Shown piece after piece: positions 11,691-54,436 of a DNA stretch of 64,000 bases (its first letter is position 1; the number at the start of each line of letters is the position of its first letter). Made by a program: the position numbers and the translations under genes. Source of the stretch: Candidatus Australimonas brisbanensis (lineage in GTDB: Bacteria > Chloroflexota > Dehalococcoidia > Lucifugimonadales > Australimonadaceae); assembly GCA_038147155.1 (NCBI GenBank), contig JAYQTA010000005.1:26745-90744 (forward strand), in the 5' to 3' direction. Under the pieces are notes generated by a model that saw only the letters and a program-made list of their open reading frames with translations, made no database searches and was not told the DNA's origin.

Positions 11691-11747
11691 GCTAGCACCT
11701 CCTCGCCGGAACGCGCTCGCCCACCCTGCCCTTCGATCTCATCCCGC

Positions 11748-13064: not shown

Positions 13065-13097
13065 GGAAGCGATTCTCCAGGCCGGATGACTTGGGGA

Positions 13098-14024
13098 CTA
13101 GCGGACTCGACCGGTGCGCAGGCTCTCGACGGTGGCCCCGATACCCGCCTCCAGCGGCGTGCGCGGGGCCCAATCCAGCTCACGGTGGGCGGCTGACGCA
13201 TCGAGCCAGACGCGCTGCACATCGCCAGAGCGGGACGGGGCGTGCCGGGGGTCAAGCGCGTAGCCGGTGGCGCGCGCCAGCGATGCGAACAGCTCGTTCA
13301 CGCTGGTGCCCACGCCCGTGCCGACGTTGTAGACGCCACTCTCCCCTGCCTCCAGGGAACGCAGGTTGGCATCCACCACGTCGGCCACGTACACGAAATC
13401 GCGCTGCTGCTCTCCATCGCCGAAGATGGTGACGGGCTCGCCCGCCAGCATCCGCGCCGCGAAGATCGCCACCACGCCCGCCTCCCCCGCAGGGTCCTGA
13501 CGCGGGCCGTACACGTTGGCGTAGCGCAGGATCACGGCGTCCATGCCGGACTGCGCGGCGAGCGCGTGGACGTAGGCTTCACCCGACGCCTTGGACGCCC
13601 CGTAGGGCGAGAGGGGCCGGATGGGGTGGCGCTCATCGCACGGGAGCGTGTGCGGCTCGCCGTAGAGCGCCCCGCCGGTGGAGGAGAAGACGAACCGGCC
13701 CACCCCCGCCGCAGCGCACGCGCGCAGCAGGTTCAGGGTGCCCAGCACGTTGACGCGGGCGTCGTGCTCCGGCTCGCGCACCGACTCGGACACCGAGGCG
13801 TGGGCGGCCAGGTGGAACACCGCCTCCGGGGCCTGCTCCACCACCAGGACGGTCAGCGCCGGATCCAGGATGTCCATCGCCACCAGGTGAGCGCCGGGGG
13901 GCACCTGCTCACGCCGTCCGGTCGACAGGTCGTCCACCACCGTCACGGCGTGGCCCGCCGCCACCAGCGCGTCGGTCAGGTGCGAGCCGATGAAGCCCGC
14001 CCCGCCGGTGAGGAGCACCCTCAT
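13098..14024 (-). CDS. NAD-dependent epimerase/dehydratase (GalE-like)
   Basis: MRVLLTGGAGFIGSH and YGASK motifs. Start at ATG 14024 overlaps the upstream TGA (ATGA). Confidence 0.8.
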   Translation of the reverse strand: MRVLLTGGAGFIGSHLTDALVAAGHAVTVVDDLSTGRREQVPPGAHLVAMDILDPALTVLVVEQAPEAVFHLAAHASVSESVREPEHDARVNVLGTLNLLRACAAAGVGRFVFSSTGGALYGEPHTLPCDERHPIRPLSPYGASKASGEAYVHALAAQSGMDAVILRYANVYGPRQDPAGEAGVVAIFAARMLAGEPVTIFGDGEQQRDFVYVADVVDANLRSLEAGESGVYNVGTGVGTSVNELFASLARATGYALDPRHAPSRSGDVQRVWLDASAAHRELDWAPRTPLEAGIGATVESLRTGRVR

Positions 14025-14986
14025 GGCAGCGGGACCTCCAGCACCCACTCTCGGTTCTCCCGGTACCAGTCCACCGCGCAGGCCAGCCCCTGGGCCAGCG
14101 AGGTTCGCGGCTCCCAGTCCAGCAGGCGCCGCGCCTTGGAGATGTCGGCAGAGGTCCTCGGCACGTCTGCGGGGTGGGAGGGGACGTACTCCACCTGCGC
14201 TGGCCGCTCCAGCAGCCCCTCCAGCGTGGCGATGACGCCGTTGATGGACTCCGGCTCATCGCCGCCCAGGTTGATGATCTCGTACCCCAGGGGACGCAGG
14301 GCCGCCACCGTGCCGCGCGCCACGTCCTCCACGAAGGTGAAGTCGCGGCTCTGGGTGCCGTCACCCGTCACCCGCAGCGTTTCCCTCTCGGCGATCCAGC
14401 GGATGAACCGGAAGATGCTCATGTCGGGGCGGCCCGCCGGGCCGTACACGGTGAAGTAGCGCAGGACGCTCACGTCCAGCCCGTGCAGGTGGTGGTAGGT
14501 GTAGCAGAGCGCCTCCGCCGCCTTCTTGCTGGCGGCGTAGGGGGAGAGGGGCCGGTCGGTGGGGTCGTCCTCGCGGAAGGCCCCCTCCCGCACCCCGTAG
14601 GCGGAGGAGGTGGATGAGAGGACGAACTTGCCCACCCCATGCGTCCGGCACGCCTCCAGCAGGTTCAGCGTGCCCGTGAGGTTGGTGGCGTAGTAAGCCC
14701 ACGGGTCGTCCACGGAGGGCTGCACCCCGGCGCGGGCCGCCAGGTTCACCACCGCCGCCGGGGCCTCCTGGGCGAACAGCGCCGCGACGGCGTCACGGTC
14801 GGTGATGTCCGCTCGCTGGAAGGTGAACCCGGGCTGGGCGCGCAGGCGGGCCAGGCGCCACTCCTTCAGGCGCACGTCATAGGTGGCGTTGAGGTTGTCC
14901 ACGCCCACGACGCGCTCGCCCTGCTCCAGCAGCCGCGCCGCCACCTGGGAGCCGATGAATCCGGCGGCGCCCGTCACCAGGATCAC
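14021..14986 (-). CDS. NAD-dependent epimerase, UDP-glucuronate 4-epimerase-like
   Basis: ILVTGAAGFIGSQVA, DNLNATYDVRLKEWRL and YAASK motifs. GTG start overlaps the ugd stop (GTGA). Confidence 0.8.
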   Translation of the reverse strand: MILVTGAAGFIGSQVAARLLEQGERVVGVDNLNATYDVRLKEWRLARLRAQPGFTFQRADITDRDAVAALFAQEAPAAVVNLAARAGVQPSVDDPWAYYATNLTGTLNLLEACRTHGVGKFVLSSTSSAYGVREGAFREDDPTDRPLSPYAASKKAAEALCYTYHHLHGLDVSVLRYFTVYGPAGRPDMSIFRFIRWIAERETLRVTGDGTQSRDFTFVEDVARGTVAALRPLGYEIINLGGDEPESINGVIATLEGLLERPAQVEYVPSHPADVPRTSADISKARRLLDWEPRTSLAQGLACAVDWYRENREWVLEVPLP

Positions 14987-16314
14987 GCGGGCCTCCCAAC
15001 GCCCACGTAGGTGAAGCCCGCGGCGCGAACGGCAGCGGGATCCAGCAGGTTGCGGGCGTCCATCAGCAGGTCTCCCGCCATGCGCTCACGCAGCCGGGCC
15101 AGGTCCAGCGCCCGGTACTGGGGCCACTCGGTGAGCACGGCGATGGCGTGCGCGCCCTCGCCCACGGCGTACGGGTCGTCAACGCACGCCAGCCCCGGCA
15201 TGGCCGCGCGGGCCGCGTCCATCGCCGCCGGGTCGTGGGCGCGCACCGTGGCGCCCTCGCGTCCCAGGCGGTCCACCAGGCGCATGGGCATGGAGTCCCG
15301 CACGTCGTTGGTGCCCGCCTTGAAGGCCAGGCCCAGCGCGCCGATGACCCGGTTGTACAGCAGCCCGCCCAGGCCCGCACGCAGGCGGGAGGCCACCTCC
15401 TCCAACTGCCCCTCGTTGCGCTCCAGCGCCGCCCGCAGAAGCCCCGGCTGGAAGCCGTGGGACTCCGCCACGTGCACCAGGGCGCGCAGGTCCTTCTCCA
15501 GGCACGGGCCGCCGAAACCGAGGCCGGGGTGCAGGTAGGAGGCGCCGATGCGCGGGTCGAGCCCCAGCCCGTGGGCCAGTTCCTCCACGTCCGCGCCGGT
15601 GCGCTCGCACACCCAGGCGAGTTCGTTGATGAAGGAGATGCGGGTCGCCAGATACGCATTGGCCGCGTACTTGATCATCTGCGCCGTGGGAATGGAGGTC
15701 TCCACCAGCGGTGCGGGGCCGTCCTGTCCGGGGGCCTGCCCGGCCAGCAGCGGAGCGTACAGATCACGCAGCACCGCCAGGGGGCGCTCACCGGCGGCGC
15801 CGGTGACGATGCGGTCGGGATTGAAGAAGTCGGCCAGTCCCTTGCCTTCGCGCAGGAACTCCGGGTTGGCGGCGATGTCGAAGTCCTCGCCCTCCCGGTG
15901 GCGTTCGCCCAGGATCTGCCGCACTAGGTCCACGGTGCCCACCGGAACGGTGCTCTTGAGCACCACCACCGCGTAGGGGGTGAGGTGCTGGGCTATCTGG
16001 CGGGTGACTGCCACCACCTGGGAGAGGTCCGACTGCCCATCGGGTGCGGGGGGCGTGCCCACGGCGATGAGCACCACCGCCGCGCCGGAGATGGCCTCTG
16101 CGGCGCCGGTGGTGAAGGAGAGGCGACCTGCGGCCAGTTGTGCGGCCAGCAGCGCCTCCATGCCCTCCTCCACGATGGGCGAGCGCCCCGAGGAGAGCAG
16201 GGAGACCTTGGCCTCGTTCACATCGGCGCAGACCACCGTGTGGCCCAGCGCGGCGAGACCGGCTCCGGTGACCAGCCCCACGTAGCCCGCACCGCCCAGA
16301 ACCGCAACGCGCAT
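14983..16314 (-). CDS. ugd: UDP-glucose 6-dehydrogenase
   Basis: MRVAVLGGAGYVGLVTGAGLA start at ATG 16314. GFGGPCLEKD catalytic motif. The 976-aa ORF-track extension upstream lies antisense to the antiporter and CBS genes and is rejected. Confidence 0.85.
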   Translation of the reverse strand: MRVAVLGGAGYVGLVTGAGLAALGHTVVCADVNEAKVSLLSSGRSPIVEEGMEALLAAQLAAGRLSFTTGAAEAISGAAVVLIAVGTPPAPDGQSDLSQVVAVTRQIAQHLTPYAVVVLKSTVPVGTVDLVRQILGERHREGEDFDIAANPEFLREGKGLADFFNPDRIVTGAAGERPLAVLRDLYAPLLAGQAPGQDGPAPLVETSIPTAQMIKYAANAYLATRISFINELAWVCERTGADVEELAHGLGLDPRIGASYLHPGLGFGGPCLEKDLRALVHVAESHGFQPGLLRAALERNEGQLEEVASRLRAGLGGLLYNRVIGALGLAFKAGTNDVRDSMPMRLVDRLGREGATVRAHDPAAMDAARAAMPGLACVDDPYAVGEGAHAIAVLTEWPQYRALDLARLRERMAGDLLMDARNLLDPAAVRAAGFTYVGVGRPA

Positions 16315-16420: not shown

Positions 16421-17556
16421 ATGCACGAGGTGCTGCTCCAGACCGCCGCCCTGGTGGCGCTGGCGAAGTTGGCCGAGGCCCTGGCGGTGCGCCTGCGCCT
16501 GAGCCCCCTGGCGGGGTGGGTTGCCGCAGGCCTGCTGCTGGGCCCGGTGGCGGGCTGGGCGCACCCCTCCGATGGGCTCTCGCTCCTTGCCTCCCTGGGC
16601 CTGGCGCTCCTCTTCTTCCTGGTGCGCGCCGACGAGATGGACCCTGCGGGCGTGGTGCGCGCGCTGCGCGGGCGCACGTTCCTCGCGGTGAGCGCCGCCC
16701 TGCTGCCGCCCTTCGCCGCCGGGCTGTGGGCAGCGAGCCACCTGGGCCTGCCGGTGCCCGTGGGCATCGTGCTGGCCGGGGTACTGGCACTCACCAGCCT
16801 GGGGGTGGTGGCAACGGTAATGTCCGATGCGGGGGCACTGCGCGCCGGTGCGGGGCTGCACGTGTTCACCCTGGTGGCGGTATTGGAGCTAGCGCTGCTG
16901 CTGGTGGCGGGCTCGGCGCTGCGTGTGGGTGCGGAGGGACACGCATTCGGTTGGGCGGAGGGCGGGCTGCTGGCCGCACGCATCGTGGGCTTCGCCGCCG
17001 TCGCCTGGGCGCTGGCTGCATGGGTGATGCCGTGGGTGCTGCTGCGCCTGCGCCGGTGGGTGGACGTGCCGCAGCTGGCGTTGGGCGTGGTCATGGGCGG
17101 GCTGCTGGCGGCCTTCGTCCTGTCCAAGGAGGCCGGGCTGCACGGCTCCCTGGGCGCGCTCCTGTTCGGGATGGCGCTCTCCGGCCTGCCGCGTTCGCTG
17201 CGCTCGGAACTGCTGCCCCCGCGCGGGGCATCGCCTCCGGCCTGTTCGTCCCCCTCTTCTTCGCCACCGCCGGTCTGCGGGTGGACGCCTCCTTCCTGGA
17301 TCTGCCGCTCATGACCGTGGCGGTGGTGCTGGTGGCGGCTGTCCCCGCCAAGGCGGCGGGCGCAGCGCTGGCCGGGATGCTGGCTCCCACGGGGTACCGG
17401 CTCGCCACGGCGGCAGGCCTGATGGGCAAGGGCGTCGCGGAACTGGCGCTGCTGGTGTTGCTGGCCGAGGCCGGGCTCATCGGCCAGCCTCTGTTCGCGC
17501 TCCTGTCGGTGGTGATGCTGGGGTACATCCTGCTGGCCCCCGCGGGCATCTCCTAG
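16421..17556 (+). pseudogene. cation:proton antiporter (Kef/NhaP-like), interrupted by a +/-1 frameshift
   Basis: The N-terminal 270 aa lie in frame 16421. The C-terminal RGIASGLFVPLFFATAGLRVD...LLAPAGIS continues in the frame of ORF 16414..17556. The switch falls at the run ctgcccccgcgcgggg near 17215-17230. Confidence 0.7.
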
Positions 17557-17598
17557 GCCGCTCGGCGTGCCTAGTCCGGCGCGGGGCAGGCGCGACCG

Positions 17599-18018
17599 GT
17601 GCCTCCCTCCTACGCGCGCTACGCCCTCACGGGACTCACCGCGGCCGACGCCATGGGTCACGAGTCGGCGCTGCCGCACGACGGCCTGACGCTGGCCGAG
17701 TTCATGGAGCGCTGGGCCGAGGGCGGGCGGCGTGAGTACGCCGTGGCCAAGGAGGATGGCACGCTGGCCGTGGTGTTCCCCATGACCAGCGTGCAGGACG
17801 TGCCCCGTGAGCGCTGGGCCGAGACACCCATCGCCGGGCTGCTGCGCCGCCGGGGCCCCATTGCCAGCCCCGACGTGCCGCTGGACGAGGTACTGGAGGC
17901 CATGGCAGTGCACCGGGTGGGCACGGTTCCCGTGGTGGAGGCTGACTCGCGCAAACTGCTGGGGGAGATCACCGCCTCCAGCGTGGTGGCGCTGCTGGGG
18001 AGCGCGCCGGCGGCCTGA
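17599..18018 (+). CDS. CBS domain pair protein
   Basis: Two CBS-like repeats (LTAADAMGHE... and ...VGTVPVVEADSRKLLGEITASSVVALL). GTG start. Confidence 0.75.
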   Translation: MPPSYARYALTGLTAADAMGHESALPHDGLTLAEFMERWAEGGRREYAVAKEDGTLAVVFPMTSVQDVPRERWAETPIAGLLRRRGPIASPDVPLDEVLEAMAVHRVGTVPVVEADSRKLLGEITASSVVALLGSAPAA

Positions 18019-18098: not shown

Positions 18099-19370
18099 AT
18101 GCTGACCACCGCAGAGAACGAGCGCCTCACCCAGGTTGGCCCCGGCACGCCCATGGGCGAACTGATGCGCCGCTACTGGCACCCCATCGCCGCCACCGGC
18201 GAACTGGAGGCCAAGCCCACCAAGGCCGTGAAGGTCCTGGGCGAGGAGCTGGTGCTCTATAAGGACAACTCCGGCAAGTACGGGCTGGTGGACCGCTACT
18301 GCCCGCACCGGCGCGTGGACCTCTCCTACGGCATCCCTGAGGAGCACGGCCTGCGCTGCATGTACCACGGGTGGATGTTCGACGAGACAGGCGCCTGCAT
18401 CGAGCAGCCCTTCGAGGAGACGGTGCACCCGGACGGGCGTTTCAAGGAGAAGACCGGTATCGCCGGTTACCCCGTGCAGGAGAGCGCGGGGCTGCTGTTC
18501 GCCTACATGGGCCCGCAGCCCGCTCCCCTGCTGCCTCAGTGGGACCAGCTCACGTGGGACAACGTGGTGCGGGACATCTGCCTCACCAACCTTCCGTGCA
18601 ACTGGCTCCAGTGTCAGGAGAACAGCCTGGACGGGGTGCATTCGGAGTGGCTCCACGGCTACTACGGCAACTGGCTGCGCACGGGCGTCGCCGCTCGACC
18701 CAAGGGCCAGGGCACCACGCTCAAGCTGGGGTTCGACACCTTCGAGTACGGCATCATCAAGCGCCGCCTCCAAGAGGGCTTCGCCGAGGACGGCGACGAC
18801 TGGGTGGTGGGCCACCCGGTGATGTTCCCCAACATCCTCTCGGTGGGGAACGAGACGCGCTCAATCACCCAGTGGCGCGTGCCCATGGACGACGAGAACA
18901 CCCTGCACGTCTCCCTCTACACCTTCCGGCCCGCGCCGGGCGCCCAGGCCCCGCACCAGGACATCCCCGCGTGGCGCTACGTGCCGCTCACCGAACCCGA
19001 TGGACGCTTCGTGACCGACATCCTGTTCAACCAGGATTACATGGCCTGGAGCACGCAGGGGCGCATCGCCGACCGGGCCATCGAGATGCTGGGCCGCTCG
19101 GACGTGGGCATAATCCTGTTCCGGCGCATGCTGGCCCAGCAGTTGGACGTGGTGGCCGACGGCGGTGAGCCCATGAACGTGTTCCGCGACCCCGCCGAGG
19201 CCGCGCGCATCGTGCTCCCCCTGGAGAAGGTGAAGCACGGCGTCCTTGCCGACGGGAAGTACCGGCCCATGGAGGCCGGGCCCTCCGCTGCCCACGATCT
19301 CATCGAACAGACCCTCGCCACGTGGACCACGGTCTACGCGGGCAAAGAGGGCGCACAGGGATTCTTCTAG
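18099..19370 (+). CDS. Rieske [2Fe-2S] non-heme iron oxygenase, alpha-only phthalate/VanA/LigXa-type (paralog 1)
   Basis: Rieske ligands CPHR...CMYHGW. N-terminal LTQVGPGTPMGELMRRYWHP, typical of this family. Confidence 0.85.
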   Translation: MLTTAENERLTQVGPGTPMGELMRRYWHPIAATGELEAKPTKAVKVLGEELVLYKDNSGKYGLVDRYCPHRRVDLSYGIPEEHGLRCMYHGWMFDETGACIEQPFEETVHPDGRFKEKTGIAGYPVQESAGLLFAYMGPQPAPLLPQWDQLTWDNVVRDICLTNLPCNWLQCQENSLDGVHSEWLHGYYGNWLRTGVAARPKGQGTTLKLGFDTFEYGIIKRRLQEGFAEDGDDWVVGHPVMFPNILSVGNETRSITQWRVPMDDENTLHVSLYTFRPAPGAQAPHQDIPAWRYVPLTEPDGRFVTDILFNQDYMAWSTQGRIADRAIEMLGRSDVGIILFRRMLAQQLDVVADGGEPMNVFRDPAEAARIVLPLEKVKHGVLADGKYRPMEAGPSAAHDLIEQTLATWTTVYAGKEGAQGFF

Positions 19371-19372
19371 AC

Positions 19373-20296
19373 ATGAGCATCGCCTCCCGCACCCGCATCG
19401 GCATCTCCTCCCCGCACATCTTCCCGGACGGGACGGTGGACATGGCGCTGGTGCGCCGCTACGCCGCCCGCGCCGAGGAATTGGGTTATTCCAGCCTCTG
19501 GACGCAGGAGCGCGTCACCGGCACCCCCGTGGTGCTGGACCCGATCCCGTTCCTCTCCTACCTGGCCGGGCAGACCACCAAGGCGCGCATCGGCGTCTCC
19601 GTGCTGGTGCTGGCGCGCCACAACGTGGTGCACCTGGCCAAGCACCTGGCCTCCCTGGACCAGATGTCCGGCGGGCGGCTCATCGTGGGCCTGGGGTTGG
19701 GCGCCAACGCGGCGGACCTGGCCACCTACGGCGTGCCGCCGGAACGACGGGTGCTGCGCTTCAACGAGTCCATCGCGGCCCTGCGTTCGCTGTGGGCCGA
19801 GACCCCGGCCGCCTTCCAGGGAGAGTTGGTCAGCGTGAAGGGCGTGAACATCGAGCCCAAGCCTGCCCAGAACCCGCTGCCCATCTGGTTCGGCGCCAAC
19901 GCCGAGGCCGCCGTGGAGCGCGCCGTGCGCCACGGCAACGGCTGGACGGGCGCCGGATCCTCTCTGCGCGAGGTATTCCCCCAGCGCCTGGCCCTGGCCA
20001 AGCGGCTGCGGGAGGAGGCCGGCAAGTCCAAGGCCGACTTCCCCCTCTCCAAGCGCGTGTACCTGGCGCTGGATGAGAACGAATCGCGCGCCCGCGAGCG
20101 CCTGGCCGACTGGTTCGCCTACTACTACGGCAACCGCGAGCTGATGGAGAAGGTGGCCGTGTACGGCGCCCCCGCCCGCGTGCAGGAGCAGCTGGAAGCC
20201 TGGTCCGACGCCGGGGTGGACGAGTTCATCCTCAACCCGGTATACGACCAGGAGCAGCACCTGGAGCAGTTGGCCAAGCTCACGGGCCTGGTGTAG
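19373..20296 (+). CDS. LLM-class (luciferase-like) flavin/F420-dependent oxidoreductase
   Basis: Motifs ELGYSSLWTQER, RIGVSVLVLARHN and SGGRLIVGLGLG. Start at ATG 19373, 3 nt after the upstream TAG. Confidence 0.8.
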   Translation: MSIASRTRIGISSPHIFPDGTVDMALVRRYAARAEELGYSSLWTQERVTGTPVVLDPIPFLSYLAGQTTKARIGVSVLVLARHNVVHLAKHLASLDQMSGGRLIVGLGLGANAADLATYGVPPERRVLRFNESIAALRSLWAETPAAFQGELVSVKGVNIEPKPAQNPLPIWFGANAEAAVERAVRHGNGWTGAGSSLREVFPQRLALAKRLREEAGKSKADFPLSKRVYLALDENESRARERLADWFAYYYGNRELMEKVAVYGAPARVQEQLEAWSDAGVDEFILNPVYDQEQHLEQLAKLTGLV

Positions 20297-20308
20297 TCAG
20301 TCCGGCGA

Positions 20309-20337
20309 TTGACGCTCCGGCCAACCCCGCCTAGCAT
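20309..20337 (+). promoter_or_regulatory. putative sigma-70-type promoter (TTGACG-N17-TAGCAT)
   Basis: TTGACG at 20309-20314 and TAGCAT at 20332-20337, upstream of the LigB-type gene. Confidence 0.4.
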
Positions 20338-20373
20338 CGCCCCGCCGCGCCCACGGCGCGCGAGGAGGCGAGC

Positions 20374-21342
20374 ATGGCGCAGTTGGTACTCGGCATCGGC
20401 AGTTCCCACGGCCCCACCCTCCAGACTCCGCCGGAGGGGTGGCCGCGCCTGGGCGTGGGGGACACGAAGGACCCCCGCTTCAACTTCGACGAACTGGCCG
20501 CCAGAGCCAAGCCGGACATCGCCGATGAGATCACCCCCGAGGTGATGCGCGAGCGCCACCAGCGCAACCAGGAGGGGCTGGACGCCCTGGTGCGCCGGTT
20601 CCAGGACGCGCGGCTGGATGCGGTGGTGGTCATCTCCAACCCGCACCGCATCTTCCCGGACGACGCCCACCCGGTGCTGGGGGTCTATCGCGGCGATGAC
20701 CTGCCAGTGCAGATGAAGAAGCCCGTGTTCGACCCCAACGACCGCTTCGCCTCCCTGCGCGCCCAGAGCCTGGGTGATGACGAGATGAAGCGCTTCCCGG
20801 CCCAGCCCTCGCTGGCGACCCACCTGCTCACCACCCTGATCGACGCCGACTTCGACGTTGCCTCGGTGGAGCGCATCCGCGAGGGCAACACCCTGGACGA
20901 TGCCTTCGCCTTCCTCTACGAGCGGTTCGCGCCCGACGGCGCCGTGCCCGCGGTGCCCTTCTTCCTCTCGCGCTACCGCCCCTACCAGCCCACCGCCCGG
21001 CGCGCCTACGCCCTGGGCAAGGCGCTGGGAGAGGCCATCGCCTCGTGGGACGCGGACGCGCGCGTCGGCGTGCTGGCTTCGGGGGGCCTCAGCCACCAGG
21101 TGCTGGACGAGGAGCTGGACCGGGCGGTCATCGCCGCACTGGAGGCGGGCGATGCCGATGCGCTACGCGGGCTCGACAGCGGGCGGCTCAACATCGGCCC
21201 CGGAACGCCCGAGGTCCTCAACTGGGTCGCCGTGGCAGGGGCCATGGCCCCGACCACCATGCAACTGGTGGACTACATCCCGTGCTACCGCTCCCTGGCG
21301 GGGACCGGACACGGCATCACCTTCGGATACTGGGAGGCCTAG
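20374..21342 (+). CDS. class III extradiol ring-cleavage dioxygenase (LigB family)
   Basis: LGIGSSHGP N-terminus and SGGLSHQV motif. Size and pattern fit LigB/LigZ/gallate-dioxygenase-type enzymes. Confidence 0.7.
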   Translation: MAQLVLGIGSSHGPTLQTPPEGWPRLGVGDTKDPRFNFDELAARAKPDIADEITPEVMRERHQRNQEGLDALVRRFQDARLDAVVVISNPHRIFPDDAHPVLGVYRGDDLPVQMKKPVFDPNDRFASLRAQSLGDDEMKRFPAQPSLATHLLTTLIDADFDVASVERIREGNTLDDAFAFLYERFAPDGAVPAVPFFLSRYRPYQPTARRAYALGKALGEAIASWDADARVGVLASGGLSHQVLDEELDRAVIAALEAGDADALRGLDSGRLNIGPGTPEVLNWVAVAGAMAPTTMQLVDYIPCYRSLAGTGHGITFGYWEA

Positions 21343-21347
21343 ACCGT

Positions 21348-21623
21348 ATGCAGATCCTGGGACGATGCGGGCACAAGGAGACGGCCCGCTACTTCACCAC
21401 CGACGTCAACGTGTGCCCGCAGTGCGTGGAGATGGGCGATACGTAGGTACACCTGCGCATGTGCATGGAGCGCGGGAAGGTGGGCTGCTGCAACGACTCC
21501 AAGAACAAGTAAGCCTCCGCGCACTTCAGGGCCGATGGACACACGCTGATGCGCTCCATAGAGCCCGCTGAGGACTAGGGCTTCTGCTTCTTGGACGATA
21601 AGTTCGTCAAGATCGCGGAGTGA
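21348..21623 (+). pseudogene. UBP-type zinc-finger protein gene with three in-frame stop codons
   Basis: One frame reads MQILGRCGHKETARYFTTDVNVCPQCVEMGDT*VHLRMCMERGKVGCCNDSKNK*ASAHFRADGHTLMRSIEPAEDWGFCF-type tail. Stops are TAG 21444-21446, TAA 21510-21512 and TAG 21576-21578. The final stop is TGA 21621-21623. Confidence 0.7.
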
Positions 21624-21648
21624 GCGGCCCGCCTGAACCCGGACGAGC

Positions 21649-21685
21649 GAAGGAGAGGAGCGGACGGCGTCCGCTCCTCTCCTTC
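21649..21685 (+). terminator. GC-rich hairpin terminator
   Basis: GAAGGAGAGGAGCGGAC-GGC-GTCCGCTCCTCTCCTTC, a perfect 17-bp stem. Confidence 0.6.
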
Positions 21686-21734
21686 ATCCCCGCTGCTCCC
21701 CCTGTCCACAGGGCACGCCTCCTCGTCGTTAGGT

Positions 21735-21830
21735 GTCATGTTTATCACTGTTTTATTCGCATATTTTTCGTGAAGTGAATCACTAGGCGATTTTCCTTGC
21801 CGTTCCTCGGCGTTCTGTGATAAACACCCC
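21735..21830. promoter_or_regulatory. AT-rich regulatory region with inverted repeats upstream of the TctC-like/Rieske genes
   Basis: This is the lowest-GC stretch of the window. TGTTTATCAC (21739-21748) has its exact reverse complement GTGATAAACA about 70 bp downstream. ATCAC half-sites recur (TTATCACTG, AATCACTAG). Confidence 0.4.
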
Positions 21831-21871
21831 GGAACCGGCGGATGTCCCGCTGGATTCTCGGGAGGTGACCC

Positions 21872-23038
21872 ATGCGAGTCCGTAAGTCCCTTGGCCTGGC
21901 GCTTCTGACGCTGGCGCTGGCCGGCCTGTTGGCGGCCTGTGGTGGCGAGACGCCCACCGCTACCCCCACGGCCACCCCCAAGCCCGCCGACAACGGCGAC
22001 ACCACGGCGCCCGCGGCAACGCCAACGCCGTCCTTCGACCTGGCGGCCCACTTCAAGGGCAAGACCATCCGCATCATGGCCAACTCCAACCCCGGTGGCG
22101 GCACCGACGCCCAGGGGCGCTTTATGGCCACGTTCCTGAGCGAGTGGATCCCGGGTAACCCCCGGTTCATCGTCTCCAACAACGGCAACAAGGACGGCGA
22201 GTACGACTACGCCGCCTCCCGCGCGCCCAAGGACGGGACGTACTGGTCCTGGACCTCCACGCCTGAGCTGGAGCGCGGCCACCGCGACGGCGCGGTGAAG
22301 CGGTCTGAGTTCCGGTTCCTCTGGACCCAGGCCCCGCGCAACGTGCAGACGCTCACCTATGAGTCCAAGTACAACTGCGCATGGGATGCCTCCGGTTCCA
22401 GCGAGGCGTTCTTCTCCTTCGCCGACGAGATCGCCGACGTGGAGTCGGGTGGCGCAACCATCCTGGCCAACGTGAGCTACATGGAGGACCTGCGGGTTCC
22501 CATCATCTACAAGGCCGTGGCCTCTGCGACCACCGCCGACGTGCTGCTGATGTGGGAGCGCGGTGACATCAACTCCACCTCCCGCAACTCCCTCTGGTAC
22601 CAGTTGCCCACCACCCGCACGGGATGGGTGGCCGATGGCACGGTTCGGATGGTGGCCGACATGGGCTTCACGCCCGCCCAGGCCAACGCCGAGGCCGAGC
22701 CGCACTGCGGCCAGGTCCGCGACCACATGACCCCCGAGGGCGTCGAGCGCCTCAACGGCTTCTTCAACCCCTCCACCTACGTGGGCAAGTCGCTCTGGCT
22801 GCCCCCCGGTGTGCCCGAGGAGGTCTGGGTGGGCCTGGGTGAGGCCCTCAAGGCCGCCTTCAACGACCCGGGTGTCTCGGCCAAGTACGAGGACTTCACG
22901 GGCGTCGCCATGAACGAGCAGATCTACTACGAGCAGGGCCAGGAGCTCACGGTCATCACCGACCCGGCCTACGCCAAGGCGATCGCCGTCATCGACGCCG
23001 AGTCCGCTCGCATCCGCGAGAAGTACTTCGGTCTCTAG
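21872..23038 (+). CDS. TctC/Bug-family tripartite tricarboxylate transporter substrate-binding lipoprotein (orphan)
   Basis: Lipobox LLAAC, then a Thr/Pro-rich linker. KTIRIMANSNPGGGTD and PGNPRFIV are shared with the TctC-like gene at 53273. Strong SD GGGAGGTGA. Confidence 0.7.
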   Translation: MRVRKSLGLALLTLALAGLLAACGGETPTATPTATPKPADNGDTTAPAATPTPSFDLAAHFKGKTIRIMANSNPGGGTDAQGRFMATFLSEWIPGNPRFIVSNNGNKDGEYDYAASRAPKDGTYWSWTSTPELERGHRDGAVKRSEFRFLWTQAPRNVQTLTYESKYNCAWDASGSSEAFFSFADEIADVESGGATILANVSYMEDLRVPIIYKAVASATTADVLLMWERGDINSTSRNSLWYQLPTTRTGWVADGTVRMVADMGFTPAQANAEAEPHCGQVRDHMTPEGVERLNGFFNPSTYVGKSLWLPPGVPEEVWVGLGEALKAAFNDPGVSAKYEDFTGVAMNEQIYYEQGQELTVITDPAYAKAIAVIDAESARIREKYFGL

Positions 23039-23051
23039 CCACACGTGACCT

Positions 23052-23081
23052 GCAGGGGGGAGGCTCCGTCCTCCCCCCTGC
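23052..23081 (+). terminator. GC-rich hairpin terminator
   Basis: GCAGGGGGGAGG-CTCCGT-CCTCCCCCCTGC. Confidence 0.55.
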
Positions 23082-23300
23082 GCATGCGGCGCCACGGCGC
23101 CCCTCGTGGGGGAGGGGAGTAGCACCGTTCCTCCCGCTGCTCTCCTCCCCCTCCCTGCGTCTTCCGTACTCCACGCACCCAACCATGGTTGGGGTGCGAT
23201 TGCGTGTGCCCGCCGGATGTGCTAGACACAGCGCGCCCCCGCACCCTGCTGGGGACAACACGTCCCAGCCCCGTTCGCGCTGCACGCAGGAGGTGCAACC

Positions 23301-24653
23301 ATGCTGTCCGCAGAAGTGAACGACCGCTACACCCGCGTCGGCCCCGGCACGCCCACGGGCGAGCTGATGCGCCGCTACTGGCACCCCGTGGCCGCCGTCT
23401 CCCAGATGAACGACATCTTCACCAAGAAGGTGCGCCTGCTGGGGGAGGACCTGATCCTCTACAAGGACCGGAGCGGCACCTTCGGGCTCATCGAGCCCCT
23501 CTGTGCGCACCGGCGCATGAACATGATCTACGGCATCCCCGAGGAGCACGGCCTGCGCTGCGCCTACCACGGCTGGATGTTCGATGAGACCGGCGCCTGC
23601 ACCGAGCAGCCCTACGAGGAGACCGAGGACCCCACGGGCAACTACAAGGACAAGATCCACATGAAGGCCTACCCGGTGCAGGTGAAGGCCGGCATCGTGT
23701 TCACCTACATGGGCCCCGCCCCCGCCCCACTGCTGCCCAACTGGGACGTGTTCGCGGCGGAGGACGTGGTGCGCGACGTGGGCTACGCGGAACTGCCGTG
23801 CAACTGGCTCCAGTGCCAGGAGAACTCCCTGGACCCGGTGCACCTGGAGTGGCTCCACGTGTACTGGAGCAACTTCATCACCGAGATGCGCGGGGAGCCG
23901 GAGAAGAAGCGGGCCGTGCGCCGCCACGCCAAGGTCCACTTCGACCGGTTCGAGTACGGCATCTACAAACGCCGGGTGATGCAGGGCGGGTCGGAGGAGG
24001 ACACCTCCTGGCGTGAGGGGCATCCCATCGTCTTCCCGTACTTCCTGCGCCAGGGGGGTGATGGGTTCATCCGTGAGCACTGGCGGCTCACCGGACCGGC
24101 CTTCCAGATACGCGTGCCGCTGGATGACACCCACACCGGCCACTGGTGGGTGATGTGCCACCAGGCCGAGCCCGGCGCACCGGCCCAGCAGAACGAGGAC
24201 GTACCGTTCTTCAGCCCGCCGGTCATCGAGCTGGACGAGAACGACCAGCCCCAGTACTCCATCCTGGACTCCAACTCCGCCCAGGACCTGGCGGCGTGGA
24301 TCACCCAGGGCGCCATCGCCAACCGCGAGCGGGAGAACCTGGGGCGCTCGGACAAGGGCATCATTCTGTTCCGCCAGATGCTGGAGGAGAACATCCGGCT
24401 GGTGGAGGACGGAGCGGACCCCATGAACACCTTCCGTGACCCGGCTGAGAACGTCTACCACGGCATGGTCACCGAGCTGCCCAAGGAACTGGCGGAGAAG
24501 CGCTCCAAGACCGACGTGGGCGGCACCGGCACCGGCGGGTCGGTCTTCTCCCGCCAGGGCATGGCCTCCAAGTACAGCCCCATCCTGAACCAGCGGGGCG
24601 TGGAGGGCGGCGCGGACGCCGCCGAGCGCCGCCGCCAGATAGGCCAGAAGTAG
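23301..24653 (+). CDS. Rieske [2Fe-2S] non-heme iron oxygenase, alpha-only type (paralog 2)
   Basis: CAHR...CAYHGW Rieske ligands. Long identical blocks with paralog 1 (GIPEEHGLRC, YHGWMFDETGAC). SD AGGAGG. Confidence 0.85.
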   Translation: MLSAEVNDRYTRVGPGTPTGELMRRYWHPVAAVSQMNDIFTKKVRLLGEDLILYKDRSGTFGLIEPLCAHRRMNMIYGIPEEHGLRCAYHGWMFDETGACTEQPYEETEDPTGNYKDKIHMKAYPVQVKAGIVFTYMGPAPAPLLPNWDVFAAEDVVRDVGYAELPCNWLQCQENSLDPVHLEWLHVYWSNFITEMRGEPEKKRAVRRHAKVHFDRFEYGIYKRRVMQGGSEEDTSWREGHPIVFPYFLRQGGDGFIREHWRLTGPAFQIRVPLDDTHTGHWWVMCHQAEPGAPAQQNEDVPFFSPPVIELDENDQPQYSILDSNSAQDLAAWITQGAIANRERENLGRSDKGIILFRQMLEENIRLVEDGADPMNTFRDPAENVYHGMVTELPKELAEKRSKTDVGGTGTGGSVFSRQGMASKYSPILNQRGVEGGADAAERRRQIGQK

Positions 24654-24656
24654 CGC

Positions 24657-24699
24657 TCAACCGGGGCGGGCGGTGATGCCGCCCGTCCGCCCCGGTTGA
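24657..24699 (+). terminator. long GC-rich hairpin after the Rieske gene
   Basis: TCAACCGGGGC...GCCCCGGTTGA outer stem with inner GGGCGG/CCGCCC. The 3' arm overlaps the next promoter's -35 box. Confidence 0.55.
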
Positions 24700-24725
24700 C
24701 AGCCTCGCTCCCCTGACGCTAGGCT
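24696..24725 (+). promoter_or_regulatory. putative promoter TTGACA-N18-TAGGCT driving a leaderless transcript
   Basis: TTGACA at 24696-24701 and TAGGCT at 24720-24725. The ATG at 24733 lies 7 nt after the -10 box and has no Shine-Dalgarno. Confidence 0.5.
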
Positions 24726-24732
24726 CTCCGCG

Positions 24733-24798
24733 ATGTTGAACTGCACCGGCTGCTGTAACTGTTGTTGCTGTGCACACCCGCTCGAGGAGCAGGGCTAG
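24733..24798 (+). CDS. polycysteine leader peptide (21 aa, 7 Cys), putative cysteine-sensing attenuator sORF
   Basis: ATG TTG AAC TGC ACC GGC TGC TGT AAC TGT TGT TGC TGT GCA CAC CCG CTC GAG GAG CAG GGC TAG = MLNCTGCCNCCCCAHPLEEQG. Too short for the ORF track. It lies between a promoter and a terminator, upstream of a sulfur-uptake operon. Confidence 0.6.
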   Translation: MLNCTGCCNCCCCAHPLEEQG

Positions 24799-24849
24799 CC
24801 CAACGCGACATCGTGACAGCGGCGCGCAAGCGTCCATCGACCCAGCGCA

Positions 24850-24879
24850 AGGCAGACTGCTCCGGCAGCCTGCCTTTTT
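24850..24879 (+). terminator. intrinsic terminator (attenuator) between the poly-Cys sORF and yeeE
   Basis: AGGCAG-A-CTGC-TCCG-GCAG-C-CTGCCT followed by TTTTT. This is the only hairpin in the window with a clean U-tract. It lies about 40 nt before the yeeE ATG. Confidence 0.65.
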
Positions 24880-24918
24880 CGTTGCCCCCACAACCACCTC
24901 TCCGGAGCGACCAACGCG

Positions 24919-26169
24919 ATGACCACCGCCCCTGCCGCAGCCACTCCCGCCCGCAACCCCCTGGTGCCGGTCTCGCGCCAGACCATCGCCGGGTTCGCCG
25001 TGGCGGCGGCGAGCATCCTGGCCGCCTACCTCATCAGCCGGAGCGACCCCGAGTCCGGGGCAATCTGGATTCTGTCTCTCGCCTTCGGTTTCACCCTCCA
25101 GCGCGCCCGCTTCTGCTTCGCCGCCGCCTTCCGTGACCTGTTCCTCTTCGGCTCCGGCGCCAACATGAAGGGCATCCTGGTGGGCATGGCCGTCTCCACC
25201 GTCGGCTTCGCCGCCATCATGTACTGGTTGGTGAGCCGGCCCGGCAGCGGCCAACTGCCCGGGGAGGCGCACATCCTACCCGTGGGTCTCTCGGTCGTCG
25301 TTGGCGGGGTGGTCTTCGGCGTGGGGATGGTCATCGCGGGCGGGTGCGTCTCCGGCACGCTCTACCGCATGGCCGAGGGGTACGTGGCCTCCTGGGTCAC
25401 CATGGGCGGCATCATCCTGGGCCTGGCGGGTCTCAGCCTCACCTGGAACTGGTGGTGGGAGAGCATCATCTCCAACGAGCCCAAGATCTGGCTCCCCGCG
25501 ACGGGCGGCCTCGGCTACTCCGGCGCGGTGGCCCTCACGCTGGTGGCCATCGCCGGCATCTACGTCCTGGTCACCTGGTGGGAGGCACGCTCCGGCATCT
25601 ACTCCCCCACCATCAACCGCAAGTCCTCCGGCATCCCCTCCTTCACCCAGCGCATCGCGTCCACCCTCGCCTCCGTGTTCAAGAGCGGCTGGTCGGCGGT
25701 GGTGGGCGGGCTGGTGCTGGGCATCATCGCCATCGTCATGTTCACCGTGCACATGCCCCTGGGCGTCACCGGCGAACTGATGTACTTCTCCCACAGGCTG
25801 CTGGAGTTTGTGGGGCTCGGGCCCGTGGTGATGAACGGGCTGGACGGGCTGGGCGGATGCACCGCCGAGCCGGGCGCGGGGCTCATCAACCACACCTTCG
25901 CCCTCACCGTCGGCATCCTACCGGGGGCGCTGATGGGCGCGCTGTTCGCGGGTGAGTTCCGGGTGCGCTACCCACGCCAGGTGCGCCGCTACATCCAGGG
26001 CATCGGCGGCGGGCTGCTGATGGGGTACTCGGCCGGCCTGGCCATCGGGTGCACCATTGGGGCGTTCTTCTCGGCCATCCCCTCGCTGTCCGTCTCCGGC
26101 TGGCTCTTCGGCCTGGCGCTGGCAGGCGGGGCGTTCGTGGGCACCAAGGTGCTGCGGAGAATCGGCTGA
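24919..26169 (+). CDS. yeeE: YeeE/YedE family sulfur-compound (thiosulfate) transporter
   Basis: Polytopic membrane protein with the family motifs FGFTLQRARFCFAAAFRD, GGCVSGTLYR and AIGCTIGAF (conserved Cys-containing half-helices). Confidence 0.85.
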   Translation: MTTAPAAATPARNPLVPVSRQTIAGFAVAAASILAAYLISRSDPESGAIWILSLAFGFTLQRARFCFAAAFRDLFLFGSGANMKGILVGMAVSTVGFAAIMYWLVSRPGSGQLPGEAHILPVGLSVVVGGVVFGVGMVIAGGCVSGTLYRMAEGYVASWVTMGGIILGLAGLSLTWNWWWESIISNEPKIWLPATGGLGYSGAVALTLVAIAGIYVLVTWWEARSGIYSPTINRKSSGIPSFTQRIASTLASVFKSGWSAVVGGLVLGIIAIVMFTVHMPLGVTGELMYFSHRLLEFVGLGPVVMNGLDGLGGCTAEPGAGLINHTFALTVGILPGALMGALFAGEFRVRYPRQVRRYIQGIGGGLLMGYSAGLAIGCTIGAFFSAIPSLSVSGWLFGLALAGGAFVGTKVLRRIG

Positions 26170-29054: not shown

Positions 29055-30908
29055 CTAGGACAGGTCCAGCCCCTCCAGCGTTTCGCCGATGACGTGGTAG
29101 CGCCCGAAGGGGGGCATGAAGTAGGCACCCGCGATGTGACGGCGCACGGCTCGCAGCAGCTCCTGGCTGATGCGGATGCCCTCTGCCGCGGCGTCCTCGC
29201 CCGCCGCCTCCAGACGCGCAAACGCCTCGTCTGGCACGCTGATGCCGGGCACCTCGTGGTGGAGGAAGCGCGCGTGTCGCAGCGAGCGCAGGGGCAGCAC
29301 GCCCAGCAGCACCGGCAGCGGGAAGTCGCCCAGGCGCAGCGCCACACGCTCCAGCGCCGCCGGGTCGTACACGGGCTGGGTGAGCAGGAAGTGCGCCCCG
29401 GCGGCCGCCTTGCGCTCCAGCACGCGCAGCTCCCGGTCCAGGTCCTGGGCGTTGAGGTTCAACGCGGCGCCCACGAAGAAGGAGGTGGGCTCGTCGATGG
29501 CGCGCCCGTTGGCGTCCACGCCCCGGTTGAACCCGGACATGAGCTTGATGAGGCCGGAGGCGGTGACGTCGGCCAGGGAGGTCGCCTGGGGGTAGTCGCC
29601 GGTGAGGGGCACGTCGCCCATGACGGTGAAGACGTTGCGCACGCCCAGGGCGTGGGCCCCCAGCAGGTCGGAGTGGAGGGCCAGAAGGTTCCGGTGCCGG
29701 ATGGCCAGGTGCATGATGGTCTCGATGCCCAGGCGCGACTGGAGCAGCGAGCAGGTGGCCAGGGCGCTCATGCGCCCCTGGGCCCGCGGGCTGTCGGCCA
29801 CGTTGACGGCATGAAGGTGGCCCAGCGCGGGGCGCAGCGCCTCCAGCGTGGCGCTGATGTCGAACCCGCGCGGCGGTGAGAGCTCGGCGGTGACGACGAA
29901 CTCGCCCCGTGCCATGCGCTCTGCGATGGCGGTGCGCTCAGCGGCGCGGGCCGGTGTGGCAGGCGCGGGGGCTGGGTCGGGCGGCTCACGGCGCGGTGCG
30001 GCGGGCCGCGGGGCGCGTGAGCGGCGGGCGTGGACACCACGCAGGGCATCCCGCGCCGCGGCGATGTGCGCGGGGGTGGTGCCGCAGCACCCGCCCAGGA
30101 GCACGGCTCCTGCCTCGGCCATCTGGCGGGCGCTCTCGGCGAAGTACTGCGGGCCCGTGACGTAGCTCAGTGCGCCGGCGATGTAGGTGGGCAACCCCGC
30201 GTTGGGCTGGGCGGACAGCGGCACGTTGGTCACCGTGCCCATGCGCTCGGCCACCCGGCGCACCAGGTCGGGCCCCACGGAGCAGTTGGCGCCCAGCACG
30301 TCCACGCCCAGGACCGCCAGGGCCTGCGCGGTCTCCTCCGGGGTGTCGCCGGCGGGGGTGAGCCCCTCCTCGGTGAAGGTGAGCTGGCACACCAGGGGCA
30401 GTGATGAGACGGAGCGAACCGCGGCGACGGCCAACCGCGCCTCGGCCAGGGAGGTGAACGTCTCCAGGACGAACACGTCCACCCCGGCATCGGCCAGCAC
30501 CGCCGCCTGCTGGGCGAAGGCGTTGTGCGCCCCGGCGGCGTCCAGCGCGCCCACGCTTACCGCCTCGCGCCCCAATGGCCCGATGGAACCGCCCACCCAC
30601 ACGTCCTGCCCCGTGAGGCGCCGTGCCTCCTGCGCCAGGGCCACGCCCGCGCGGTTCAGCTCCTCCACGCGCTCTCCGGCGCCGAGAGCCGTCAGCTTGA
30701 GCGGGTTGGCGAGGAACGTGTTGGTCTGAATCAGCTCGGAGCCCGCGCACAGGTAGTCCAGGTGGATGGCCCGCACCGTCTCGGCGTGCTCCAGGTTGGC
30801 CAGGTGCACCCGCGCGCCCGGCACGCCGTGGGTGAACAACTCCGTGCCGATGGCGCCATCGGACAGGAGCGGGCCTTGCTGGAGGCGTTGGGTGAGGGAG
30901 CGGGGCAT
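29055..30908 (-). CDS. yitJ: bifunctional homocysteine S-methyltransferase domain / 5,10-methylenetetrahydrofolate reductase (YitJ-type)
   Basis: N-terminal Hcy-binding domain (LLSDGAIGTEL...GGCCGTTPAHI). C-terminal MetF-like domain (FVVTAELSPPRG...FLLTQPVYD). Start at ATG 30908. The upstream ORF-track extension is rejected. Confidence 0.85.
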   Translation of the reverse strand: MPRSLTQRLQQGPLLSDGAIGTELFTHGVPGARVHLANLEHAETVRAIHLDYLCAGSELIQTNTFLANPLKLTALGAGERVEELNRAGVALAQEARRLTGQDVWVGGSIGPLGREAVSVGALDAAGAHNAFAQQAAVLADAGVDVFVLETFTSLAEARLAVAAVRSVSSLPLVCQLTFTEEGLTPAGDTPEETAQALAVLGVDVLGANCSVGPDLVRRVAERMGTVTNVPLSAQPNAGLPTYIAGALSYVTGPQYFAESARQMAEAGAVLLGGCCGTTPAHIAAARDALRGVHARRSRAPRPAAPRREPPDPAPAPATPARAAERTAIAERMARGEFVVTAELSPPRGFDISATLEALRPALGHLHAVNVADSPRAQGRMSALATCSLLQSRLGIETIMHLAIRHRNLLALHSDLLGAHALGVRNVFTVMGDVPLTGDYPQATSLADVTASGLIKLMSGFNRGVDANGRAIDEPTSFFVGAALNLNAQDLDRELRVLERKAAAGAHFLLTQPVYDPAALERVALRLGDFPLPVLLGVLPLRSLRHARFLHHEVPGISVPDEAFARLEAAGEDAAAEGIRISQELLRAVRRHIAGAYFMPPFGRYHVIGETLEGLDLS

Positions 30909-30978
30909 GGTCCTCGGGGGCGCGATGCGCGGGGGCGTCCTGCCCATTGTACCCGGCGCAAGCGGCACGGGCAGTGCG

Positions 30979-54409: not shown

Positions 54410-54436
54410 CCGGGAATCGAACGAGACAGGGAGCCT

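Follow-up and report, generated by a model that had tools for sequence, protein, structure and literature searches.

A Probable Aromatic-Acid Catabolic Cluster with Two Paralogous Alpha-Only Rieske Oxygenases and No Linked Reductase in a SAR202-Like Member of the Chloroflexota

Introduction

Alpha-only Rieske oxygenases with solved structures include the phthalate 4,5-dioxygenase (PDO) PDO-KF1, RO-CH34, and the isophthalate dioxygenase (IPDO) IPDO-KF1, and in PDO the substrate is positioned by Arg207 and Arg244 (PMC8649396). Another point of comparison is the ligXa-ligZ-ligY-ddvK-ddvR cluster of Sphingobium sp. SYK-6, which is listed without the ferredoxin LigXc and the reductase LigXd (PMC6874591). 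Here, we consider a 64,000-nucleotide stretch of the genome of Candidatus Australimonas brisbanensis (Chloroflexota, Dehalococcoidia; contig JAYQTA010000005.1, positions 26,745–90,744 of the forward strand), hereafter the window, whose numbering is used throughout, and in particular its interval 18099–24653, where two paralogous alpha-only Rieske oxygenases, R1 and R2, bracket genes for an LLM-class oxidoreductase, a LigB-family ring-cleavage dioxygenase, and a solute-binding lipoprotein, LP1.

Enzymes of this kind are abundant in the SAR202 lineage. Expanded sets of ring-hydroxylating dioxygenase alpha subunits, mostly auto-annotated as phthalate 4,5-dioxygenase, have been described there, with 62 copies in MPMJ01 (Saw et al., 2020; PMC6946804), and one SAR202 metagenome-assembled genome (MAG) has been reported to encode 30 ring-demethylating monooxygenases, 10 ring-hydroxylating dioxygenases, 11 ring decarboxylases, and 25 ring-cleaving dioxygenases (Colatriano et al., 2018; PMC6123686). 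The word “ferredoxin” is absent from the main texts of both papers, as is “reductase” from that of the latter; missing electron-transfer partners are not discussed in these texts, nor do they describe the gene order and the tripartite tricarboxylate transporter (TTT) component reported below.

We consider it probable that the interval is a chromosomal catabolic cluster of SAR202-like Chloroflexota (Dehalococcoidia) for carboxylated, possibly methoxylated, aromatics, with an unlinked reductase. Sequence identities, intact catalytic motifs, predicted folds, synteny, purifying selection, and the lack of linked redox partners are the observations that carry this reading, while the substrate, the order of the steps, and the identity of the reductase are what we infer.

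Results

Two Paralogous Rieske Oxygenases

Fifty-nine genes were called in the window (G+C content ~70%) by third-position GC, and their products were surveyed with Pfam, eight of them singly and 51 joined by GS linkers (2–6 per query), the joined queries giving spurious “Serglycin” matches and only the best stretch per family. The interval 18099–24653 contains five intact genes, all on the plus strand: R1, the LLM gene, the LigB-family gene, LP1, and R2.

R1 (18099–19370, +, 423 aa) and R2 (23301–24653, +, 450 aa) match the Pfam Rieske model with 69.6 and 59.4 bits, respectively (cut-off 20.3). They also match LigXa_C (52 and 48.6 bits, gathering score 27), this match covering only ~50 of the 304 model positions (~207–257). 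A sequence-only reading of the window had already noted that the two share long identical blocks, and indeed they are 50% identical across 401 aa, with identical runs of 10–14 residues such as YGIPEEHGLRC, YHGWMFDETGAC, and LPCNWLQCQENSLD. The third Rieske gene that it placed at 63746 is likewise genuine: R3 (63746–64000, –) comprises the C-terminal 84 codons of a paralog, whose full-length form (446 aa; Rieske 63 bits, LigXa_C 42.4 bits) is found on the metagenome contig L092 next to an identical SDR gene. The motif EDGGEPMNxFRDP is common to R1, R2, and R3. The exact R2 sequence has no match in public assemblies.

The catalytic motifs are intact. The ligands of the Rieske [2Fe-2S] cluster in R1, C68-P-H70...C87-M-Y-H90, have an equivalent pattern in R2 and R3, and all four are invariant across a 41-sequence alignment of the family, as are D178, H181, H186, and D313, which form the mononuclear iron site with its bridging Asp. 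The AlphaFold2 model of R1 (pLDDT 91, pTM 0.91) shows a two-domain fold, Rieske and catalytic, and its best Foldseek matches, all full-length, are PDO-KF1 (7V25, E 2e-30), RO-CH34 (7FHR), and IPDO (9INA). According to the sequence search against solved structures, the closest proteins are PDO-KF1 and RO-CH34 (~1e-50; PDO 5e-50), followed by isophthalate dioxygenase (~1e-35); R2 aligns with IPDO 9INA over nearly its full length. The basic cluster K221-R222-R223 is invariant in the family, and K221 aligns with Arg231 of the PDO substrate pocket; this cluster is compatible with anionic substrates.

The R1 family is very large and concentrated in Dehalococcoidia/SAR202 genomes. More than 5,900 relatives were found at E ≤ 1e-10 among 8,000 candidates scored, the named ones being Chloroflexi or Dehalococcoidia MAGs, and a library clustered at 50% identity yielded 945 clusters at E ≤ 1e-30 and 4,853 at E ≤ 1e-10. 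The JGI name for the family, “5,5'-dehydrodivanillate O-demethylase,” is an automatic label and not proof of activity. A check for fusions in the family as a clue to partners gave one fusion to an O-methyltransferase, one dehydrogenase-like N-terminal extension, one SNF2 fusion, which probably is an assembly artefact, and no fusion to a reductase. In the first of these, P0358 (751 aa), the O-methyltransferase part (Dimerisation and Methyltransf_2 domains) is C-terminal, which hints at hydroxy- or methoxy-aromatic chemistry in a part of the family. A sponge-associated Chloroflexota MAG carries about six R1-family open reading frames (ORFs), two of them overlapping, within 13 kb (L025:5553–18373, JAPPHT010000056.1), together with Amidohydro_2, SDR, and TctC-like genes.

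The Genes Between R1 and R2

The three functions assigned earlier to the genes between the oxygenases hold up, being supported by family matches, a family profile, and a predicted fold. The LLM-class oxidoreductase (19373–20296, +, 307 aa) matches Bac_luciferase with 185 bits and the F420-dependent subfamily model TIGR03619 with 193.8 bits, above the curated cut-off of 166.9. Its ATG lies at 19373, not 19322, that is, 2 nt past the R1 stop, according to the JGI gene call in an independent metagenome (L001) and the junction sequence.

The next gene encodes a divergent LigB-family (class III) extradiol ring-cleavage dioxygenase (20374–21342, +, 322 aa; Pfam LigB 50.4 bits, cut-off 26.3). It aligns with gallate dioxygenase DesB and the LigB beta subunit, the His of GGLSHQ and the Glu of PEVxxW being kept: GGLSHQ aligns with GTGGMSHQ of LigB and GTGGLSHQ of DesB, and PEVLNW with AEVVMW of DesB. 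The N-terminal His residues (SSHGP, NPH) were spotted by eye only. Its 742 relatives are for the most part unnamed and come from Chloroflexi and Alphaproteobacteria, with no conserved partner genes in the contexts examined. It is followed by a zf-UBP zinc-finger pseudogene (21351–21623, +) with three in-frame stops (TAG, TAA, TAG), one lost Cys, and no indels, whose counterpart is intact in the related contig L007 (L007:8115–8390, 91 aa, Pfam zf-UBP 46.5 bits) and partly decayed in another relative, L008.

LP1 (21872–23038, +, 388 aa) is a lipoprotein with the lipobox LAAC and a Thr/Pro-rich linker. Alone, it matches no Pfam or NCBIfam model, and of its 109 relatives at E ≤ 0.001 almost every one is an unnamed protein from Chloroflexota, although some remote members are recognized as TctC. 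A profile built from 62 family members (A1) matches BugD over almost its full length (1.3e-13) as well as ten further TTT binding proteins, some of them terephthalate-binding; Pfam TctC is matched by eight of the 62. All 17 best Foldseek matches of the AlphaFold2 model (pLDDT 88) are TTT binding proteins (target TM 0.67–0.73), the terephthalate binders TBP and TphC among them. Taking the family profile and the predicted fold together, the assignment of LP1 to the TctC type is correct. The wider family to which LP1 and its paralog LP2 belong (P0121–P0229) is almost exclusively from Chloroflexota, has the same lipobox and Thr/Pro-rich tether, is mostly annotated as “hypothetical protein,” and is missed by Pfam TctC at the gathering score.

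In the sequence-only reading, LP1 was an orphan TctC, with the only TctAB pair of the window far away. There is indeed no TctAB next to LP1, and the only TTT membrane unit in the window is a TctA protein (496 aa, Pfam TctA 366 bits) with an overlapping 198-aa TctB-like membrane protein at 54645–56731 (+); however, this unit has a TctC-like lipoprotein of its own directly upstream, LP2 (53258–54409, +), which scores 25.9 bits with TctC, narrowly below the cut-off of 27, and whose N-terminal block is 55% identical to LP1. In the Bug family, orphan TctC genes are commonly served by a TctAB from another locus. The permease at 54.6 kb may be regarded as a candidate partner of LP1 in trans.

Conservation and Variation Among Relatives

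Three related loci allow for a comparison of the whole region. In L001, DNA identity over R1, the LLM gene, and the LigB-family gene is 99.8%. In the Chloroflexota MAG GCA_038109085.1 (L008, also counted as L028), it is 86–88%, and the order is Rieske, LLM, LigB, decayed zf-UBP, GFO/IDH/MocA oxidoreductase, LP1, and the start of R2. On a 145-kb metagenome contig (L007), it is 86–95%, and the order is Rieske, Zn-alcohol dehydrogenase (ADH), LLM, LigB, zf-UBP, three TctC-like genes, a 680-aa TctA, and the second Rieske gene. The window and L007 have common flanks, with UDP-glucose dehydrogenase and an Na+/H+ exchanger on one side, and YeeE, TusA, rhodanese, and saccharopine dehydrogenase on the other.

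Of the three TctC-like genes in L007, the first is orthologous to LP1. The other two and the TctA are missing from this position in both the window and L008, which amounts to ~4.9 kb. The TctA of L007 is 35% identical to the TctA of the window, and its C-terminus weakly matches the 198-aa TctB-like protein. Given the fuller cluster in L007, the “orphan” TctC of the window sits at a junction where whole genes vary among close relatives, and the arrangement seen here is the short form of this variable region.

The five cluster genes are under purifying selection: their dN/dS values (ratios of nonsynonymous to synonymous substitution rates) relative to L007 are 0.08–0.16 (R1 0.14, LLM 0.14, LigB-family 0.10, R2 0.08), and R2 is 98% identical to its L007 ortholog. 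Synonymous divergence from L007 is ~0.28–0.37 to the left of the LP1/R2 junction (18099–23038) and ~0.15 to the right of it (23301–26169); this step, which coincides with the 4.9-kb difference in content, may be a recombination breakpoint. Upstream of R1, the Na+/H+ exchanger-CBS gene (16421–18018, +), a single 533-aa gene in L007, has a frameshift near 17220 and in-frame stops at 17554–17556 and ~17572, due to either gene decay or sequencing error.

The idea of a genomic island was considered and rejected, the borders being devoid of integrase, transposase, and tRNA genes and the position being syntenic in relatives; the G+C content of the cluster is 0.67–0.69, and that of the flanks, 0.72–0.74. 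Rfam, tRNA, and promoter/terminator scans gave nothing at the cluster; the window has three tRNAs, all outside the cluster, and no riboswitch, and consensus sites are as frequent as expected by chance.

Electron-Transfer Partners

The earlier claim that the 64 kb encode no ferredoxin, reductase, or beta subunit is borne out both by the Pfam survey and by motif scans. None of the 59 proteins matches Fer2, Fer4, FAD_binding_6, NAD_binding_1, Pyr_redox_2, flavodoxin, or Ring_hydroxyl_B at E ≤ 1e-3. A six-frame scan of the window for plant-type and adrenodoxin-type 2Fe-2S, 4Fe-4S, rubredoxin, Rieske, and FNR (RxYS...GxGxxP) motifs yielded, in coding-like frames with high third-position GC, only the two Rieske sites and the zinc ribbon of NrdR, and no Cys-rich candidate was seen in the intergenic gaps. 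A partner just beyond the window was also considered: in L092, there is no ferredoxin upstream of R3 over the ~650 bp past the right end of the window, where an 83-aa ORF (73 aa in the record, a single Cys, no Pfam match) is followed by a partial gene.

We then turn to the family as a whole. One genome per species was scanned with R1, yielding 80 loci with R1 homologs 57–94% identical, every one from a Dehalococcoidia/Chloroflexota MAG, that of the SAR202 sponge symbiont MPMJ01 among them; with ±10 kb per gene, they comprise 1,412,573 bases (1.41 Mb) and ~216 Rieske ORFs. The motif scan of these loci revealed no credible plant-type, adrenodoxin-type, or 4Fe-4S ferredoxin and no FNR/PDR-type reductase. 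The sole Rieske-type ferredoxin, in L065, belongs to a classical alpha/beta dioxygenase and has no reductase gene beside it, and gene tables with precomputed Pfam matches for other R1 homologs contain no redox partner either. The neighbors that do recur are class II aldolase-like proteins (48 of the 80 loci), Amidohydro_2 (37), an unnamed 366-aa protein without a Pfam match (35), SDR (30), class III aminotransferases (25), NMT1-like binding proteins (22), and TctC-like lipoproteins (19).

Since the motif scan finds no linked partner in the 80 loci, unlinked redox partners are family-wide and not peculiar to this locus, and the separation of the Rieske oxygenase from its reductase gene is the norm for the clade. 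Hence, the suggestion that the oxygenases borrow reductases encoded elsewhere remains the best reading, though as a family-wide habit. There is precedent for it in the ligXa cluster of SYK-6, listed without ligXc and ligXd (PMC6874591), and two-component oxygenases frequently accept non-native reductases (PMC12445004).

Weighing the Interpretation

Several observations weigh against a single catabolic cluster. The only tight coupling is that of R1 and the LLM gene (2 nt), the remaining intergenic gaps being 77–530 bp, and the gene content between LigB and R2 differs between close relatives. Away from this species group, R1 homologs have an LLM gene nearby in 4–5 of the 80 loci, a LigB-like gene in eight, and an LP1 homolog in 2–5, and this rare co-location means that a single shared pathway is not demonstrated. 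LP1 may have lost its function because its cognate TctA is missing here: LP1 is not adjacent to the TctA/TctB pair of the window, whereas its L007 ortholog stands in the run of three TctC-like genes that leads to the 680-aa TctA. In a stretch where the confidence of the alignment is moderate, PDO Arg244 aligns with Val237 of R1, which makes phthalate itself an unlikely substrate; in the same stretch, PDO Arg207 corresponds to R194 of R1 and has no counterpart in R2. With these mismatches, R1 and R2 are not classed as phthalate dioxygenases, the Arg207/Arg244 pair being complete in neither protein. Finally, the scan of the 80 loci for redox partners used sequence motifs rather than profile models.

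Much of this would also be expected if the region were a loose collection, in which independent members of expanded families happen to lie side by side in a variable region, each with its own substrate, and only R1 and the LLM gene form a true operon. The ADH, the GFO/IDH/MocA oxidoreductase, the two extra TctC-like genes, and TctA are present in some close relatives and absent from others; LigB-like, LLM, and LP1 homologs are seldom found near R1 homologs elsewhere; arrays of Rieske paralogs are frequent, with up to six in 13 kb (L025); and such expansions have been described for SAR202 (PMC6946804). On the other hand, the order R1–LLM–LigB...LP1...R2, the strand, and the flanks are kept in three related genomes, and the combination of an oxygenase, an extradiol dioxygenase, and an uptake protein mirrors known aromatic clusters. 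On balance, we hold the loose collection to be unlikely, though it is the alternative that deserves most attention.

With regard to the electron supply, one could imagine that this Chloroflexota-expanded PDO/LigXa-like clade has no dedicated class IA reductase at all and is fed by a non-canonical or housekeeping donor, such as a general ferredoxin/FNR pair or an F420H2-linked route. If true, this would establish a new class of electron-transfer chain for Rieske enzymes; however, the motif scans of the window and of the 80 loci cover linkage only, not the absence of a canonical partner from the genomes, and we regard the idea as very doubtful.

The label “aromatic” itself would be wrong if the oxygenases acted on sterols, quaternary amines, or other non-aromatics. 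The top NCBIfam match is a 4beta-methylsterol monooxygenase model, and CntA and KshA, which oxygenate carnitine and steroids, respectively, are alpha-only Rieske enzymes too. But the sterol model scores 65–69 bits against a cut-off of 600, and the sequence matches of R1 to SxtT, carbazole dioxygenase, NdmA, DdmC, KshA (~1e-10), and CntA (3e-8) are far weaker than that to PDO. In the fold search, PDO and IPDO stand at 1e-30, with all others at ≤ 1e-17, carbazole dioxygenase (1e-17) being the next fold. The genes nearby encode a ring-cleavage enzyme of the LigB type and a TctC protein with terephthalate binders among its best fold matches, and one family member is fused to an O-methyltransferase. 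The closest relatives act on aromatic acids, so that a clade of quaternary-amine oxygenases, named earlier as a possible refutation, is not what was found, and non-aromatic substrates appear quite improbable.

It was also proposed in the sequence-only reading that the LLM protein takes part in an unconventional electron path. In this scheme, the F420-type LLM, or F420H2 generally, would feed the Rieske centers in place of a canonical reductase, in keeping with the 2-nt distance between the R1 stop and the LLM start, the score above the F420-subfamily cut-off, and the lack of a linked canonical reductase in the window and the 80 loci. Yet of the 4–5 loci where an LLM gene lies within 10 kb of an R1 homolog, the two are adjacent only in L028, the sole locus of this species group, the other three to four having the LLM gene on the opposite strand and, at best, weakly similar; in L007, the ADH gene separates the Rieske and LLM genes; and R2 and R3 have no neighboring LLM gene. 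Moreover, F420 is an obligate two-electron hydride carrier, and LLM enzymes are not known to have an Fe-S or one-electron site. Solved LLM relatives are substrate-level F420 or FMN enzymes, namely dehydrogenases, reductases, and monooxygenases. As the adjacency is limited to this species group, the proposed electron path is not supported and seems highly improbable, and a redox step on a pathway intermediate is the more likely role of the LLM protein. No F420 biosynthesis gene was recognized among the Pfam-surveyed genes of the window.

That the cluster is a decaying, non-functional remnant, as the three stop codons of the zf-UBP gene, the frameshift and two stops of the upstream Na+/H+ exchanger-CBS gene, and the absence of the cognate TctA and two TctC-like genes of L007 might suggest, is hardly credible given five full-length genes with intact catalytic motifs and dN/dS of 0.08–0.16, and a 99.8% identical copy in an independent metagenome.

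A Putative Route

Returning to the preferred interpretation of a catabolic cluster for carboxylated aromatics, the genes suggest the following sequence of events. The membrane-tethered LP1 would capture an anionic substrate for a TTT permease; as the permease is no longer adjacent in this genome, the one at 54.6 kb is the candidate. R1 and R2, members of the phthalate/isophthalate-dioxygenase structural clade, would hydroxylate or O-demethylate the ring using O2 and two electrons. The electrons could come from NAD(P)H via a reductase encoded elsewhere, probably of the class IA FNR/PDR type, with or without a ferredoxin, and probably shared by many paralogs. The LigB-family enzyme would then open a catechol- or gallate-type ring product, and the F420-type LLM may perform an accessory redox step on an intermediate.

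Other Genes of the Window

The TTT unit at 54.6 kb is followed by two UbiD-family decarboxylases (Pfam UbiD, UbiD_N, and UbiD_C, each twice) and a UbiX-type flavoprotein (Flavoprotein 137 bits) at 56849–60502 (+), possibly a related module for aromatic-acid decarboxylation. An Amidohydro_2 enzyme and an SDR, identified with Pfam, are encoded at 61730–63666 (+), both being frequent neighbors of the R1 family elsewhere. The stretch 53258–64000 as a whole may be viewed as a putative second aromatic-acid module, consisting of LP2, TctA, TctB-like, two UbiD, UbiX, PNPOx-like, OsmC (–), Amidohydro_2, SDR, and R3 (–).

No transcription regulator is encoded within ~10 kb of the cluster. To this extent the earlier remark that a dedicated regulator is absent is correct, with the amendment that a gene pair ~10 kb away (34021–35830, –) comprises an extracytoplasmic function (ECF) sigma factor (~35241–35830, found by translation) followed by a DUF5667 protein, probably its anti-sigma factor.

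Directly downstream of R2, a set conserved in L007 (24919–27695, +) encodes a YeeE/YedE-type transporter, a small ORF, TusA, and a double-rhodanese lipoprotein, and this sulfur-trafficking set is probably unrelated to the oxygenases. Farther on, a 630-aa protein (29055–30947, –) joins homocysteine S-methyltransferase and methylenetetrahydrofolate reductase domains. The left part of the window (256–16281, –) is occupied by a long cluster for glycan biosynthesis (including NeuB, a cytidylyltransferase-aminotransferase fusion, DegT, formyltransferases, PIG-L, epimerases, two UDP-sugar dehydrogenases, and an ABC exporter), which possibly makes a sugar of the nonulosonic-acid type.

Discussion

With this locus, the known SAR202/Chloroflexota repertoire for the oxidation of aromatic dissolved organic matter gains a well-resolved example, and the comparison with two relatives shows how such clusters gain and lose whole genes, the transporter and the dehydrogenases among them. 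For annotation, two points follow: a Chloroflexota-specific family of TctC-like lipoproteins goes unrecognized by Pfam, and the label “DDVA (5,5'-dehydrodivanillate) O-demethylase,” carried by thousands of proteins, is unsupported by the phthalate- and DDVA-specific features tested. The results also touch on the identity of the reductase behind the dozens of unlinked Rieske paralogs of these uncultured bacteria. The lifestyle of a degrader of recalcitrant aromatics, which the sequence-only reading had derived from the expanded enzyme families, is consistent with the data, but since SAR202 oxygenase expansions have been published (PMC6946804, PMC6123686), it was already known.

Compared with the structurally characterized oxygenases, R1 resembles PDO-KF1 (7FJL, 7V25, 7V28), RO-CH34 (7FHR), and IPDO-KF1 (9INA) in being alpha-only, with no beta subunit and with the CxH...CxxH pattern; its bridging Asp178 and iron ligands His181 and His186 even carry the same numbers as in PDO-KF1, and its fold matches PDO/IPDO over the full length (TM ~0.7, E ~1e-30). 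R1 and R2 differ from these enzymes in being only 24–30% identical to them and in having, in R1, Val237 in place of the PDO residue Arg244, which is essential for phthalate. In addition, PDO and IPDO are each paired with a reductase of their own (PMC8649396, PMC12445078), whereas none is linked to R1 or R2.

The DDVA cluster of SYK-6 likewise combines a LigXa_C-type Rieske oxygenase with a ring-cleavage dioxygenase, which in SYK-6 is the OH-DDVA dioxygenase LigZ, and an uptake gene. In contrast to it, the cluster studied here uses a TTT binding protein instead of the inner-membrane transporter DdvK, has no adjacent LigY-type hydrolase or MarR regulator, and includes an F420-type LLM.

LP1 has the TctC/Bug fold, as do TphC, TBP, and the Bug family, but is 13–19% identical to them, is a lipoprotein with a Thr/Pro-rich tether and ~90 extra residues, and is missed by Pfam TctC. 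TphC works with TpiBA, and LP1 could likewise depend on a permease encoded apart from it, with the unit at 54.6 kb as the candidate.

A further parallel to the locus is found in the published SAR202 expansions, with which it has in common the lineage (the 80 loci include MPMJ01), the enzyme families, and the co-occurrence of LigB-type and decarboxylase genes.

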